Assembly (NCBI GenBank): GCA_963755915.1
Contig: CAVWLP010000002.1
Span: 4,352,001-4,416,000 of the forward strand
Origin: an uncultured Phycisphaerales bacterium
GTDB taxonomy: Bacteria; Planctomycetota; Phycisphaerae; Tepidisphaerales; Tepidisphaeraceae
DNA: 64,000 bases
Direction of reading: 5' to 3'
Made by a program: the position numbers and the translations under genes. Of the stretch, positions 38,603-45,796 are shown piece by piece. Numbering within the stretch: the stretch's first letter is position 1; each line of letters begins with the position of its first letter. A model generated the notes under the pieces. The model saw only the letters and a program-made list of their open reading frames with translations. It made no database searches and was not told the DNA's origin.

Positions 38603-38763
38603 ATGTGCCTCACGACTAGCTTTACGGCTATCTCTGGCCTTGTCTCCGAAGCCACGACTCGAACCCAAGCGCGCTCCGGGCAGGTCGGACAAGCGGGGCT
38701 GTGAAGGACGGTTGAGGTCGAGCATGTGCTCGAAACTCCTTAGCGCCCTGCCGCCGTAGGCGG

Positions 38764-38894
38764 CGACTCCCTGCCGAACACCTCAAGGCGGTCCCGATTG
38801 TCACCAAGGCAGCCTTGTGCTCCCGCAGCGGAACCGCCTGTTACATACGAGTCAACGCATCTCCTCGTCACACAAACCGCAACCGAAAATAATC
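38764..38894 (-). repeat. Dispersed 130-bp promoter/hairpin cassette, copy A
   Basis: Aligns colinearly with 54564-54693. Confidence 0.85.
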
Positions 38895-38946
38895 CGCCTT
38901 CTCTTCTCGGCCCTACCAAACCATCTCGCGAAACAAAACCTCAACA

Positions 38947-39861: not shown

Positions 39862-40619
39862 AAAATCTCCGAGATGACCGGAAAATGATCGCTCGCATAT
39901 TTCGCCAGCCGATCCCGCTCGATCCCCGCGTCCTTGATCTTCGAGATATCGATCCCAAACGTGAAGATATAATCCACCCGCTGCCCCGGAAACTGCGTCG
40001 AAAAGCTCCCCGTTTTCGCCGCCTTCCAGGGATCGTGCGCGTAAAACGTATCCAGATACCCCGCATCCAAAAGCTTATGCACCGCCGTCCGCGGCAGCAT
40101 CCCCCCATTCGCCTCATAATCCCCCTTCGTCCGCTCCTTGCACTTCTCTATCTCAATCGCCTGGATCGGCGAATTCGCATTAAAATCCCCCGCCAAAACA
40201 TGCGGCCGATTCCCCTTCCGATGCCCCGCGAAAATCTCCAATATCGCGTCAATCTCCCGCTCCCGAACCTTCTCATCCTCGAGCTTCGCATGCGGATGCA
40301 AATGCACCGCCGCCACGGTCCACTCCTGCCCATCGACCGACACCGTCGCCTCCAGCAGACAATCCGAAAGCACGATCCGCAGCACTGAATGATTCACCGA
40401 CTCAATGATATTCCCCCGCACGAGGATCGCGGCTCCGTGCTTCTTCCCATCCACCCGCAGATATTCCATCTTCAGCCGCTTCGCGATCCGCTCCACAACC
40501 GCATCATCATCCGCCTCCACCAGCGCCACAATATCCGCCCGCTGCGCCTCAATGACTTCCGCGAGCGGATCGGCACGTCCGACGCCTCCGTCGAGAATGT
40601 TGTACCCGACGATCCTCAT
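39858..40619 (-). CDS. Endonuclease/exonuclease/phosphatase family protein
   Basis: YNI, ADIVALVE, VHL, AGDFNA, RVDYIF and SDHFPV motifs. Confidence 0.9.
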   Translation of the reverse strand: MRIVGYNILDGGVGRADPLAEVIEAQRADIVALVEADDDAVVERIAKRLKMEYLRVDGKKHGAAILVRGNIIESVNHSVLRIVLSDCLLEATVSVDGQEWTVAAVHLHPHAKLEDEKVREREIDAILEIFAGHRKGNRPHVLAGDFNANSPIQAIEIEKCKERTKGDYEANGGMLPRTAVHKLLDAGYLDTFYAHDPWKAAKTGSFSTQFPGQRVDYIFTFGIDISKIKDAGIERDRLAKYASDHFPVISEIL

Positions 40620-40725
40620 CCGCGTTTGATGGTAGCGCCACCCGCCCCAAAAGCAACGGGGAAGCCCACTCAGCTTTCCCCTCCCCGGGTATGGCGGGGC
40701 AGGGCGACATAATTTTACGTTTTGT

Positions 40726-42215
40726 TAATCCCGTTCGGCACGCAGGCTTCATCGGAGCATTCCAAAGCTGTGGAGGACGCGAAACAATTGAAGCTTAGAT
40801 ACTTTTACTTTCCCCTGCTGCACGCCGGCGTCCGCAAGAGCGCAGCATCAACCGCGAGGTCTCCGCGGCGACGGATTCCCCTTCAGTTTACTCCCAGTTT
40901 TTTCAAGGCCTCCGCTCTTGCCCTCAGCTTAATCCCGGTGTTATCCGGCTTGTTCAGGAATCGAAGCACGTCCTGTTCCTCGGCCAGCCCCAGCAGATAC
41001 CAGCCGATCATGTTCCGCATCGCCTTGTTCGGCTTCCTGCCGCTGATCAGCTGAATCAGCACGCAGACGATCAGCGCGCAGTGGATTTGGATGTCGATCC
41101 CCTCCTGGCGTTGGCTCAGCAGGTGACGCATGCCCAGCAGTTGCTTGAAGATCCGGAAGAACAACTCAACGGTGTAGCGGTACAGATAAATCAGGGCGAT
41201 CAATTCCGCCGGCAGGTCCAGCAGGTTCGTGTACAGGATGATCAGGTCCGTCGGCTTGTTGCCGCTGCGCGTGCGGCGCGGATGGGGTTTCACCTGCACT
41301 TCCACCCGTCGCACCACCCTATCCGCCGCCGTCTCCAGGCCGTCGAGTTTCACCAGCGCGTCTCGCACCACGCCGCCGTCCAATGCTTCCTGTGAAAGCA
41401 ATCGTTCTTCAAACAGCTCAAACACCGAGTTTTCCGCGGCCCGCATCACAAAGGAGCTTTGCGCCGCGGCGATGTCCGCAAAGAGGCTCCGGTCGGCGTA
41501 GCCGCCGTCTCCTACATAGCACCGTCCTGCTTCCAGGCTGCGCCGCAGGACGTTGTTTTCACGGTTGGCCCCCGCGTTGCGAGCGCCAGTGCGGTCGAGG
41601 CGATGGACTTTGAACGTCTCCAGATCGAATTGAACGTGCAAACGCCAGCCATAGACCGCTTTCCCGTCCCGGGAGGTGTTGTAGCGCGCATCGATGCCGC
41701 AAGCGGATTTGGCCAGCCGACTCAGCGCCGTCAGCACCGTCCCGTCGACCAGCGTGATCGCCTGCCCAAAGTCCGCAAGACGCGGATCGGGCGCCTGGGG
41801 CAGTTCCCCCGCCAATTCCTCAATCAGCGGCGTCAAACGCCCCGGCTCGAACACCCGAACCGATTCAGAGAAACTGCCCACGGAAAAACGCTTAATTCCC
41901 AGCGCCTTGGCCACCTTGGGCAGTTCAGCAACCTCCTGAAGATCCCGCAGGGATTGGATCAGCGGATTCCAGGTGTAAAGCAAAACCAGCTTGCAATAAT
42001 CGTCGAAGTGAAGCTGGCGGTTCCCGGCTCGATCCCGCTCACAGCCCACATCCCGCAGCGTGGGCAGCAGCGCGAAGACGCGCCGCAGATGTCCGAGGCA
42101 CAGGATCTCTTTTTCCTTCAGTCTTGCCTGCACGTCCGGCAGCATGCCATAAAAAGATCAAAGGCGCAATCTCAATATCTTGCTGCTTGCGCGAACCCCG
42201 TGCCGAACGGGATTA
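40726..42215 (-). mobile_element. IS4-family insertion sequence, copy 1 (1490 bp)
   Basis: 17-bp perfect terminal inverted repeats TAATCCCGTTCGGCACG; DDE transposase inside. Confidence 0.92.
40883..42145 (-). CDS. IS4-family DDE transposase
   Basis: LVDGT, VGDGGY and YLYRYTVELFFRIFKQ (YREK motif). Confidence 0.95.
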   Translation of the reverse strand: MLPDVQARLKEKEILCLGHLRRVFALLPTLRDVGCERDRAGNRQLHFDDYCKLVLLYTWNPLIQSLRDLQEVAELPKVAKALGIKRFSVGSFSESVRVFEPGRLTPLIEELAGELPQAPDPRLADFGQAITLVDGTVLTALSRLAKSACGIDARYNTSRDGKAVYGWRLHVQFDLETFKVHRLDRTGARNAGANRENNVLRRSLEAGRCYVGDGGYADRSLFADIAAAQSSFVMRAAENSVFELFEERLLSQEALDGGVVRDALVKLDGLETAADRVVRRVEVQVKPHPRRTRSGNKPTDLIILYTNLLDLPAELIALIYLYRYTVELFFRIFKQLLGMRHLLSQRQEGIDIQIHCALIVCVLIQLISGRKPNKAMRNMIGWYLLGLAEEQDVLRFLNKPDNTGIKLRARAEALKKLGVN

Positions 42216-42248
42216 ACAAAACGTAAAATTATGTAAAATCCGCAGCTG

Positions 42249-42420
42249 GCGGCAGCCGGAAGCTGCCGGGCGGTACGCCGCAAAACTTTAGGCCGGAAGC
42301 CGCTCCGTGGCTGGACGCCACGGCGGGCGGTACCCCCCAGTGGTACGTAGGGTGGCGCGTACTCGCCCACCATTCCCTGATCGGCAGACCAAACGGTGGG
42401 CGAGTACGCACCACCCTACG
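42249..42420. repeat. REP mosaic between the IS copies
   Basis: Two hairpin+CGGGCGGTAC units (42250-42276, 42303-42333) and an inverted GTAG-type doublet CGTAGGGTGGCGCGTACTCGCCCACC...GGTGGGCGAGTACGCACCACCCTACG (42346-42420). Confidence 0.8.
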
Positions 42421-42455
42421 GTCTTGCTAAAATCGCGTAAAACGTAACAAAACGT

Positions 42456-43944
42456 TAATCCCGTTCGGCACGGGGTTCGCGCAAGCAGCAAGATATTGAG
42501 ATTGCGCCTTTGATCTTTTTATGGCATGCTGCCGGACGTGCAGGCAAGACTGAAGGAAAAAGAGATCCTGTGCCTCGGACATCTGCGGCGCGTTTCGCGC
42601 TGCTGCCCACGCTGCGGGATGTGGGCTGTGAGCGGGATCGAGCCGGGAACCGCCAGCTTCACTTCGACGATTATTGCAAGCTGGTTTTGCTTTACACCTG
42701 GAATCCGCTGATCCAATCCCTGCGGGATCTTCAGGAGGTTGCTGAACTGCCCAAGGTGGCCAAGGCGCTGGGAATTAAGCGTTTTTCCGTGGGCAGTTTC
42801 TCTGAATCGGTTCGGGTGTTCGAGCCGGGGCGTTTGACGCCGCTGATTGAGGAATTGGCGGGGGAACTGCCCCAGGCGCCCGATCCGCGTCTTGCGGACT
42901 TTGGGCAGGCGATCACGCTGGTCGACGGGACGGTGCTGACGGCGCTGAGTCGGCTGGCCAAATCCGCTTGCGGCATCGATGCGCGCTACAACACCTCCCG
43001 GGACGGGAAAGCGGTCTATGGCTGGCGTTTGCACGTTCAATTCGATCTGGAGACGTTCAAAGTCCATCGCCTCGACCGCACTGGCGCTCGCAACGCGGGG
43101 GCCAACCGTGAAAACAACGTCCTGCGGCGCAGCCTGGAAGCAGGACGGTGCTATGTAGGAGACGGCGGCTACGCCGACCGGAGCCTCTTTGCGGACATCG
43201 CCGCGGCGCAAAGCTCCTTTGTGATGCGGGCCGCGGAAAACTCGGTGTTTGAGCTGTTTGAAGAACGATTGCTTTCACAGGAAGCATTGGACGGCGGCGT
43301 GGTGCGAGACGCGCTGGTGAAACTCGACGGCCTGGAGACGGCGGCGGATAGGGTGGTGCGACGGGTGGAAGTGCAGGTGAAACCCCATCCGCGCCGCACG
43401 CGCAGCGGCAACAAGCCGACGGACCTGATCATCCTGTACACGAACCTGCTGGACCTGCCGGCGGAATTGATCGCCCTGATTTATCTGTACCGCTACACCG
43501 TTGAGTTGTTCTTCCGGATCTTCAAGCAACTGCTGGGCATGCGTCACCTGCTGAGCCAACGCCAGGAGGGGATCGACATCCAAATCCACTGCGCGCTGAT
43601 CGTCTGCGTGCTGATTCAGCTGATCAGCGGCAGGAAGCCGAACAAGGCGATGCGGAACATGATCGGCTGGTATCTGCTGGGGCTGGCCGAGGAACAGGAC
43701 GTGCTTCGATTCCTGAACAAGCCGGATAACACCGGGATTAAGCTGAGGGCAAGAGCGGAGGCCTTGAAAAAACTGGGAGTAAACTGAAGGGGAATCCGTC
43801 GCCGCGGAGACCTCGCGGTTGATGCTGCGCTCTTGCGGACGCCGGCGTGCAGCAGGGGAAAGTAAAAGTATCTAAGCTTCAATTGTTTCGCGTCCTCCAC
43901 AGCTTTGGAATGCTCCGATGAAGCCTGCGTGCCGAACGGGATTA
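42456..43944 (+). mobile_element. IS4-family insertion sequence, copy 2 (1489 bp), inverted relative to copy 1
   Basis: Same terminal repeats; appears identical to copy 1 except for a 1-bp deletion near 42594. Confidence 0.92.
42526..43787 (+). CDS. IS4-family transposase with a 1-bp frameshift near the N-terminus (sequencing error or pseudogene)
   Basis: Protein identical to copy 1 on both sides of the indel. Confidence 0.85.
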
Positions 43945-44259
43945 ACGTTTTGTTACGTTTTCGGCGAATTAGTTAGTATATGCTAACTCATTTTGATTTA
44001 AGTCTGTGTGGGGGAGGTGGTTGCGTGGGGTTTGGTTAATTTTCAATAAACGCGGGGTGTAACATTGCTGGATAGGAATTCGCCCGCTCTTTCCACTTTC
44101 CACCGCTCTGCTCTCTCACGAAGCGAGGCGGAGATCGTGCGGGTCCGCGATGTTTCATCCGCAAGATTGTCCGGCAGTAATCTATCGAGTAACTTGTATG
44201 CGGACTCCGATCCGGAGTAACTGTGCTCTGAGTCGCGACATACGTAAAGGTGGTGCCTG

Positions 44260-44499
44260 ATGGCCGAATCTCAATTCGAAAAAGGCGACACGGTAATGCT
44301 AAAGAGTGGCTCGCGGTTGATGACGATTAAGAGCTTTCAGGACAACGACGCGGAGTGCCATTGGGTGGATAAAGACGGAAAGCCGGAGTCGGCCAATTAC
44401 GATACTTCAATGTTACGTCACGCAACGCGCGCTGTACCTCGCATAATCGCCTTGCGGCGGCCCAGTGTCACCCCAAGTAATTCGCCAGAATATTCTTGA
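44260..44499 (+). CDS. YodC/DUF2158 family small protein
   Basis: FEKGDTVMLKSGSRLMTI...AECHW pattern. Confidence 0.8.
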   Translation: MAESQFEKGDTVMLKSGSRLMTIKSFQDNDAECHWVDKDGKPESANYDTSMLRHATRAVPRIIALRRPSVTPSNSPEYS

Positions 44500-44816
44500 T
44501 ACCGGCGATCATTGCCTCCACGTCCTGCCGAGTAAATTGATCGAATTCGCCGTGGGCGGCTTTGTTGCGAATGTGTGCCCAAGCCTCTAGCTGTGCAGCC
44601 ATCGTTTGTTTGAACACATCAGCTTTTTTGAGCGCTACGATAAGCGGGCTGAGGGTCAGCGGATTGCCTTTGGCATTCGTTGTCGGTATCGACGGTTTCT
44701 GCTTTTGGCACAAAGTCCTTAGAGTTTTCTCTAAGACCGCGCCAGCTAGGACGGCTGCGGGGACATGGTCATTCTTGCCGGATTGACCCTCAACGAGAAG
44801 TTCGTCCGCTTGTCCC
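44468..44816 (-). pseudogene. 5'-truncated HEPN/DUF4145-like gene
   Basis: AAVLAGAVLE and IRNKAAHG (RxxxxH) motifs; 5' end replaced by IS3 sequence. Confidence 0.7.
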
Positions 44817-45502
44817 ATGGCGGATCGGCAGGTGAGCGTCTGCGTGAACACGGTGGCGCGTCTGATGAAACAGGCCGGATTGCAATCGCGGATTCGCCGG
44901 CGATTCGTCGTCCATACCACCGATTCGAATCACGATGAGCCGGTCGCGGCCAATGTGCTGGACCGCCAGTTCGCAACTGAGCGCCCAACCGCAAGTGGTG
45001 CTGCGACATCACCTACGTTCCGACGGATGAAGGATTCCTATACCTGGCGGCCGTGATCGACCTGTGCAGTCGGAAAATAGTCGGCTGGTCGATGGCCGAT
45101 CATCTGCGAAGTGAGCTGTGTCTGGAAGCGATATCGATGGCGCTGACACATCGCCGACCGGAGCGAGGTTTGCTGCACCACTCCGATCGCGGTGTCCAAT
45201 ACGCCTGCGAGACTTATCGACAGATGCTGGCGGAGCATGGGATGGAGCGGAGCATGAGCCGCACCGGCAATTGCTACGACAACGCGGTGATGGAGAGCTT
45301 TTTCAGCACGCTGAAGACGGAGCTCATTTATCACGAGCACTACGCAACGCAAGCGGAGGCTCGGCGTTCGATCTTTGAGTACATTGAAGTGTTTTACAAT
45401 CGCCAGAGACGTCACTCGGCGATAGGCTACCAAAGCCCCGAAGCGTTCGAGGCCAGCCTGAACTGACGATTTGGCCGCGCCCACCGAACGTGGGGAAGGT
45501 CA
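44817..45502 (+). mobile_element. IS3-family remnant (3' half of OrfB and right inverted repeat)
   Basis: NTVARLMK, DLCSRKIVGW, HHSDRGVQY, GNCYDNAVMESFF and YNRQRRHSAIGYQSP; ends GGGGAAGGTCA. Confidence 0.9.
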
Positions 45503-45573
45503 CTACGGAGGATCAGAAAAATCGCGTCCTCTTCGTTGGCCACTTTGTTTAAACTTGGATCGCTTAACCGCAA

Positions 45574-45796
45574 ATGGCCGACCGGGTTGGGCCGAAGAAA
45601 AAATCCGGATGCCGTGAAAACCGAATGGATCGAGATGCGCGTCGAGAAGTCCGAAAGGGATACGTTCCGCGCCGCCGCTGACGCAGCCGGATTGCCGCTG
45701 TCCGGCTGGATAAGGCAACGCTTGCGCCATGATGCGAAATAGGAATTGGAGGATTTGGGGTTGCCTGTGCCATTTGTTGAGCGCCTAGGCGTCTGA
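45574..45796 (+). pseudogene. Ribbon-helix-helix (DUF1778/MobC-like) gene with an internal TAG
   Basis: IEMRVEKSERDTFRAAADAAGLPLSGWIRQRL; the frame continues ELEDLGLPVPFVERLGV* after the stop at 45740. Confidence 0.5.

Follow-up and report, generated by a model that had tools for sequence, protein, structure and literature searches.

How do two nearly identical insertion sequences (ISs) come to lie in opposite orientations only 240 bp apart, each with the same 9-mer outside, its complement inside and no direct target duplication of its own? This question is raised by a locus in a 64,000-nucleotide stretch of the genome of an uncultured Phycisphaerales bacterium (family Tepidisphaeraceae; GenBank assembly GCA_963755915.1, contig CAVWLP010000002.1), hereinafter the window, which corresponds to C2:4352001-4416000 of the source genome (G000; 6.63 Mb, 3 contigs). 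The window's own numbering is used below unless a contig (C2 or C3) is named. Comparison of this locus with its IS-free counterpart in a congeneric genome (G001) indicates that the segment between the two ISs is inverted. The most likely history, which we consider probable, consists of two insertions and a subsequent homologous recombination event that joined the inverted copies.

The pair consists of copy L, on the minus strand, and copy R, on the plus strand (Table 1), which are 100% complementary over 1353 + 140 nt, the sole difference being an extra G in L at 42077. The whole is a 3.2-kb near-palindrome with a 240-bp spacer (the middle segment), and both transposase genes begin beside the middle segment and run outward. 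Four occurrences of the 9-mer ACGTTTTGT are found in the window, at 40717-40725 (+), 43945-43953 (+), 42216-42224 (-) and 42447-42455 (-), compared to an expectation of 0.30 per window estimated from 100 shuffles, none of which reached this number; an IS end adjoins every one of the four. Thus, both ISs have ACGTTTTGT on the outer flank and its complement, ACAAAACGT, on the inner flank, and neither has a direct 9-bp duplication. Flanks and IS ends together form inverted repeats, a perfect one of 36 nt around copy L (40707-40742 / 42199-42234) and one of 43 nt with 93% complementarity around copy R (42430-42472 / 43928-43970). The match extends beyond the 9-mers: the left part of motif copy 1 reappears as its reverse complement at 42216-42234, as does the right part of motif copy 2 at 42439-42455. 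When 42216-42455 is flipped, ACATAATTTT-ACGTTTTGT-TACGTTTT, as read from the window sequence, is restored.

The orientation of the middle segment can be compared with that in G001, where the same locus is present without any IS, with 88% identity across the flanking Exo_endo_phos gene. The order in G001 is the gene, ACATAATTTTACGTTTTGTTACGTTTT (27 of 27 positions matching), ACGCGATTTT, a hairpin with 29-bp arms, approximately 35 bp, ACATCATTTTACGTTTTGCTACGTTTT (25 of 27) and the dispersed repeat that we denote segC. The empty locus accordingly consists of two direct copies of the 27-bp motif around a hairpin segment, and this segment is opposite in orientation to that in the window. For the alignment, both ISs and one 9-mer each were removed from the window, and 42216-42455 was either flipped back or left as assembled. 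The flipped-back version yields a single colinear high-scoring segment pair (HSP) with G001 (query 3-529, 527 columns, 581 bits); with the assembled order, the left-flank HSP ends at 368 and the middle segment aligns on the minus strand, with 90% identity over 105 columns. In addition, a short contig from metagenome run X4 passes from the 42455 end of the middle segment into AAAATTATGTAAGGGGCTGCGC, which is the empty motif 1 of a G001-like strain. The locus hence combines the two marks of an IS-mediated inversion, namely, flanks that are reverse complements across the two copies, and the opposite orientation in an IS-free outgroup.

Table 1. Features of the IS pair and its surroundings (window coordinates)
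Feature	Position	Strand	Remarks
Motif copy 1, left outer part	40707..40725	+	ACATAATTTT + ACGTTTTGT (40717-40725); adjoins IS L; identical to motif 1 of the G001 empty locus
IS copy L, 1490 bp	40726..42215	-	Equals the consensus of 23 genomic copies; transposase-proximal end towards the middle segment
IS4-family DDE transposase, intact, 420 aa	40883..42145	-	Open reading frame, PF01609, NF033592, YREK motif
Middle segment, 240 bp	42216..42455	.	ACAAAACGT at both ends (42216-42224, 42447-42455); inverted relative to the IS-free ortholog
REP-like hairpin, 29-nt arms, 93% complementary	42346..42420	.	Kept in the G001 empty locus
IS copy R, 1489 bp	42456..43944	+	1-base deletion relative to L between 42593 and 42594 (= 42077 in L)
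Transposase reading frame of copy R	42510..43787	+	First ~23 codons out of frame
Motif copy 2, right outer part	43945..43961	+	ACGTTTTGT (43945-43953) + TACGTTTT; G001 motif 2 matches 25/27
segC repeat start, ~180 bp, dispersed, intergenic	43945..44125	+	Phased GTTAC motif at the 5' edge

The 420-aa transposase of copy L matches Pfam PF01609 (DDE_Tnp_1) over residues 127-360 with an E-value of 1.4e-19 and NCBIfam NF033592 ('IS4 family transposase') with 154.6 bits against a cut-off of 115. The Y-(2)-R-(3)-E-(6)-K signature, which defines the IS4 family according to the family description in PMC2266710, is present as YLYRYTVELFFRIFK at residue 320. The terminal inverted repeat, TAATCCCGTTCGGCACG, is 17 bp long and perfect, and as is typical of the IS4 family, the element encodes a single transposase open reading frame (ORF), with no programmed frameshift, and combines terminal inverted repeats with 9-bp duplications, within the range of 8-13 bp, about one helix turn. 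Judged by these features of its sequence, that is, size, single ORF, TAAT... ends, 9-bp duplication, DDE domain and YREK signature, the element belongs to the IS4 family. Comparison of the transposase sequence with the Protein Data Bank yielded no solved transposase but only 3 small terminases, matched by chance (E 0.038-0.13), so there is no sequence-based structural link to Tn5 or Tn10.

A first-pass annotation, produced by a model from the letters of the stretch, had already assigned the pair to the IS4 family, and PF01609, NF033592 above its cut-off and the YREK signature bear this out. It had also described the swapped 9-mers and the lack of a direct repeat for each IS, at coordinates that are all reproduced by our 9-mer search and inverted-repeat alignment, and had pointed out that flipping 42216-42455 gives each copy a 9-bp duplication within a 27-bp target, into which the pieces indeed fit. 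Its proposal of two insertions of the IS, one in each orientation and both at the same place within a repeated motif, after which the middle segment was inverted, gains support from the G001 empty locus and the colinear HSP.

The integrity of the transposase genes differs between the copies. In copy R, the ATG-initiated frame 42526-42711 stops after 61 aa owing to the 1-bp deletion, which is also found in copy C2:2451907; this frameshift may reflect either a pseudogene or an assembly or long-read error. Across 23 genomic copies, which range from 1487 to 1491 bp in length, recurrent single-base indels and one G/A difference are seen in GCGC-type contexts at alignment columns 140, 426, 532 and 1139-1140. 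These recurrent indels could be a systematic long-read error, caused, for example, by a methylated motif, rather than real variation, and their origin matters for judging which of the transposase genes are intact.

Under the scenario that we favor, the ancestral locus would have contained two direct copies of ACATAATTTTACGTTTTGTTACGTTTT approximately 220 bp apart, around hairpins resembling repetitive extragenic palindromes (REPs). A first IS would have entered ACGTTTTGT of motif 1, and a second one, facing the other way and possibly arriving by a local hop, this same 9-mer in motif 2. The two inverted copies, each 1.49 kb long, would then have undergone homologous recombination, which would invert the DNA between the crossover points and move the inner 9-mers to the other copy, leaving ACGTTTTGT outside and ACAAAACGT inside each IS. 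We infer the order of these events, as well as recombination as the mechanism of the flip. Recombination is preferred because the IS4 family, as described in PMC2266710, transposes by cut-and-paste, through hairpin intermediates, and because every other copy that can be interpreted is a simple insertion.

Several observations weigh against this scenario or limit its reach. Copies L and R are identical but for one base, and accordingly their sequences neither date nor order the events; variant sharing among the 23 copies gives no dating signal either, L being the consensus and R one base off. Hits in two adjacent motifs would be a coincidence unless the IS hops locally, given that about 9 of the approximately 63 sites with this 9-mer are occupied, by our derivation. 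Instability might be anticipated for a near-palindrome of 3.2 kb whose spacer measures just 240 bp, but the assembly contains it. G001 lacks about 100 bp beside motif 2, so the ancestral state of G000 is a reconstruction. In the metagenomic data, no contig in the 4 runs that we compared spans the whole IS, and the orientation of the middle segment is that given by the assembly. Finally, the same product would be yielded by a single intramolecular event.

In this latter case, a single IS would have jumped 'in trans' within the molecule, its target being ACGTTTTGT in the second motif about 230 bp away, producing an inverted duplicate of the IS and inverting the middle segment in one step. Such transposition is described for IS26 and Tn4401 in PMC4471558 as generating an inverted segment bounded by the original IS and its newly made inverted copy, along with inverted duplications, and the predicted product matches the observed structure exactly. 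Moreover, one event would replace three, the closeness of the two copies would be accounted for, and the two copies equal the consensus save for one base. The exchanged duplications are ambiguous in this respect because the four flanking 9-mers share a single sequence: old and new duplications would coincide, so the flank pattern does not discriminate between the routes. What argues against a single step is the nature of the element, an IS4-family member with a full YREK signature and not a member of a replicative, cointegrate-forming transposase family; under cut-and-paste transposition as described in PMC2266710, an element moving within one molecule would leave no copy behind where it had been. 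The simple insertions seen in 18 of the 23 copies in G000 and in all 9 examined copies in G001 point in the same direction, and we regard the one-step origin as rather unlikely. If it were true, a supposedly cut-and-paste family would make IS26-like inversion-duplications when a second preferred target is located within a few hundred bases. Taken jointly, the two more exotic options, this copy-generating transposition by an IS4-family element or a live flip-flop of the 240-bp core at high frequency, appear quite unlikely as well, even though putative ongoing flipping between the 1.5-kb inverted repeats is plausible. If the core does flip, its orientation could decide whether the intact or the frameshifted transposase copy receives read-through transcription.

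A more mundane explanation is that the 240-bp middle segment was misoriented in assembly, or that both orders are present in the population and the assembler chose one. G000 is a metagenome-type assembly in 3 contigs, with 81% completeness and 8% contamination, and the clustering of single-base indels between IS copies at GCGC suggests noisy long reads. Parts of the window stretch are found in twenty soil-metagenome runs, all as short Logan contigs. The contigs of four of these runs (X1, X2, X4 and X5) were compared with 40300-42470: a 1493-nt contig (X1 record 3) covers 40724-42216 and a 606-nt contig (X1 record 1) covers the junction of the left flank with the IS, each with 0 differences, and neither a joint nor a spanning record is present among the contigs compared. 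The middle segment meets the same IS end on either side, so the junction sequences are the same in both orientations, and short reads are blind to the orientation because either order gives identical junctions. A read of about 1.7 kb, extending from the unique flank through one IS into the middle segment, would settle the orientation, however, and this is short for long-read data; furthermore, the direct duplications are correct at 18 of the 23 copies, so repeats are generally well resolved. In a mixed population, the inversion would still be real. An artefact of this kind therefore seems to us distinctly improbable.

The pair could also be taken for the ends of a single mobile unit, and the first-pass annotation had considered a mini composite transposon. 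Indeed, the 9-mers on the outer sides (at 40717 and 43945) form a direct repeat, and the ISs are inverted as in Tn10 and Tn5, as though an IS-middle-IS unit had moved, Tn10-like, into a single motif and generated the outer direct ACGTTTTGT ... ACGTTTTGT. The likeness to Tn10 and Tn5, in which a segment lies between inverted IS4-family copies and 9-bp direct repeats enclose the whole, does not extend to the enclosed DNA, which here is native, geneless and without a sign of having moved. In G001, the same gene and segC flank the hairpin segment, two motifs are present and an IS is absent; the middle segment is found nowhere else between IS copies in the genome, and there is no second IS-middle-IS copy. 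We therefore reject the composite-transposon reading as exceedingly improbable.

The other genomic copies show that the IS has a marked preference for a particular target. A BLAST search identified 23 full-length copies in G000 with at least 99.7% identity, plus fragments. The 9-bp target duplication is perfect in 15 of the 23, has one mismatch in 3 and is missing in 5, namely, the window pair, C2:2451907, C2:4456243 and C3:106168. The 18 empty sites that could be reconstructed yield a two-fold symmetric 15-bp consensus, G-N-W-[AC-N5-GT]-W-N-C, with A-rich and T-rich shoulders; the respective counts among the 18 sites are 16 for G(-2), 16 for A1, 16 for C2, 17 for G8, 15 for T9 and 14 for C(+12), and the center is always A/T. 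The favorite 9-mer, ACAAAACGT/ACGTTTTGT, adjoins an IS end in 16 of its 70 genomic instances. Elsewhere in the genome, the 27-mer ACATAATTTTACGTTTTGTTACGTTTT has 13 matches with no more than 3 mismatches, against 0 for the reversed control, and 3 of these 13 directly adjoin a copy of the window IS. The 27-mer is built of three 10-bp-phased units (ACATAATTTT, ACGTTTTGTT and ACGTTTT...), and the IS also uses a neighboring register, ACATAATTT, at C2:1073100 and C2:3984409.

The duplication-bearing sites span at least 4 short repeat families built of 10-bp-phased GTWAC, including the 27-mer family, the ...AGGTACAAAACGTACACCTTTTGG... family (four copies) and the CTGTTACCTTTTGTACC family (four copies). 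Four of the 18 sites (ACATTCCGT, ACTGTTCGT, GCAGATCGT and CTAATCTGG) fall outside these families and lack the homology that family-2 copies share in the flank directly next to the IS, although at one of the four, C2:290850, repeat homology is present farther out in the flank. Copies with a common target motif share flank homology over only about 30-160 bp, and because the common flank is so short, they appear to be independent insertions rather than duplicated blocks. Of the same type are the targets in G001, where all 9 copies examined (95-96% identity) carry 9-bp duplications without a mismatch: ACAAAAGGT in three cases, ACGTTTTGT in two, ACAGAACGG/CCGTTCTGT in two, and ACAGAATGT and ACGAAATGT.

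By the evidence of these insertion sites, the targeting is real and strong, and what is recognized is a sequence and not one repeat family; the IS selects the AT-rich phased motif rather than the GC-rich hairpins adjacent to it. The first-pass annotation had singled out the flanks of other copies and the empty 27-mers for comparison, and both reveal related targets, in the form of the 18-site consensus and the 13 motif matches against none in the control. Its expectation of strict repeat targeting stands insofar as the same type of target recurs at the flanks of other copies, and has to be relaxed insofar as the symmetric consensus extends across at least 4 repeat families, with 4 of the 18 sites lying outside all of them.

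A sister IS, 69% identical over 254 nt, approximately 1.49 kb long and with the ends CATTGCCGTTCGGTAC, is present in three full copies (C2:3982783-3984273, in loci L028 and L036; C2:2541309-2542800; and C2:819380-820879) plus a partial one. Its insertions likewise fall in phased GTTAC motifs, with 9-bp AC-N5-GT duplications, of which 1 is perfect, 1 has one mismatch and 1 is missing. The region C2:3982600-3986012 is a paralogue of the window locus, and there the sister IS is 126 bp away from a copy of the main IS. As a comparison of 42216-42455 with L040 3208-3400 shows, G000 contains, adjacent to motif 2, about 100 bp of extra GC-rich hairpin sequence that is missing from G001, and a paralogue of this extra sequence lies beside the same motif at C2:3985897-3986012; hairpin modules and motif seem to have spread together as mosaic units.

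Apart from the window pair, the copies without a duplication are C2:2451907-2453395, C2:4456243-4457732 (about 60 kb past the pair, outside the window) and C3:106168-107657; comparison by eye of the 9-mers flanking these three revealed no reciprocal matches. Copies of ISs that lack duplications are the subject of PMC11708052, where inversions are not taken up. C2:2451907 and C2:1073100 have an identical right flank over at least 600 bp (99.7%). The missing duplications together with the common right flank, as far as can be read from the sequences, point to other IS-associated rearrangements or duplications.

Symmetric targets are familiar among IS4-family elements: that of IS231A is GGG-N5-CCC in the ends of Tn4430, and that of IS10 is NGCTNAGCN. 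The window IS resembles both in its family and in having a two-fold symmetric target that is centered on the duplication and used in either orientation, and differs in the consensus, AC-N5-GT with G(-2) and C(+12). Another point of comparison is ISRm22 of Sinorhizobium meliloti, for which the table in PMC1525189 lists 10 of 10 copies in REPs and the discussion text of the same article mentions nine copies. With ISRm22 and subgroup IS4, the window IS shares the YREK transposase, the single ORF, a size of ~1.4-1.65 kb, the use of one position of short intergenic repeats, and conserved 'arms' flanking the duplication. Its TAATC... end also resembles the -AATR end signature given for the subgroup in PMC2266710, whereas it duplicates 9 bp compared with the 10-13 bp listed there for the subgroup. 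Unlike ISRm22 and subgroup IS4, the window IS targets an AT-rich, 10-bp-phased GTWAC array adjacent to the GC-rich hairpins and not the palindrome as such, and it uses several repeat families as well as a few family-less sites. It does not show the 'type 1 association' of Tobes and Pareja (PMC1525189), in which every copy is found at the same position of one REP family.

Inversions deduced from exchanged target duplications are presented as routine in PMC4471558, and the inversions associated with IS26, Tn4401 and many other elements share with the window locus the inverted copies, the lack of a direct repeat for each copy, the k-mers that are reverse complements across the copies, and the recovery of the ancestral order upon flipping. 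The window differs in that its inverted segment has no gene and measures a mere 222 bp from one 9-mer to the other, a single 9-mer serves as both duplications, and the element belongs to a cut-and-paste rather than a replicative family. The locus is a clean but ordinary example of IS-driven genome rearrangement, the kinds of targeting and inversion involved having been described already. Because of the target specificity, the pattern mimics the insertion of a composite transposon and hides the difference between recombination and a one-step event, and only the empty ortholog resolved the orientation of the segment. The sharply defined target, which is shared with the sister IS (69% identity) and conserved between two congeneric species, makes insertion sites predictable and provides a natural substrate for the study of target capture by IS4-type transposases.

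None of this implies a biological function for the inverted segment. The middle segment contains several GC-rich hairpins (folding z of -5.39) and no ORF of note in the ORF list. A search of 40000-45600 against Rfam at E <=1 yielded only 5 sub-threshold look-alikes of miRNA hairpins, at 42346-42420, and nothing for the motif or segC. A sigma-70 promoter scan of 40500-44400, which addresses this one promoter type only, found 0 sites compared to a shuffle mean of 1.0. Hence, there is no sign of a switch in the middle segment, which has no gene and, in that scan only, no sigma-70-like promoter, and the inversion is probably neutral.

The neighborhood of the pair is itself rich in repeats. The segC repeat, an AT-rich intergenic sequence of approximately 180 bp, has six further genomic copies with 79-91% identity and the phased GTTAC at each 5' edge. 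Downstream of the seven copies are unrelated small ORFs (DUF2158 here, antitoxin-like elsewhere) with no common gene, and because these ORFs are unrelated, we propose no regulatory role for segC. Farther to the right, a 686-bp stretch (44818-45503) that occurs 8 times in the genome with 99.6-99.9% identity overlaps the start of a DUF4145/HEPN-like ORF (44468-44920) and encodes a fragment of an integrase core (..HSDRGVQYACETY..NCYDNAVMESFF..), which we take, from its motif, to be IS3-family-like. On the left side of the pair, a segment of approximately 150 bp (38760-38909) has more than 40 diverged genomic copies with 72-84% identity and is probably a repeated coding module.

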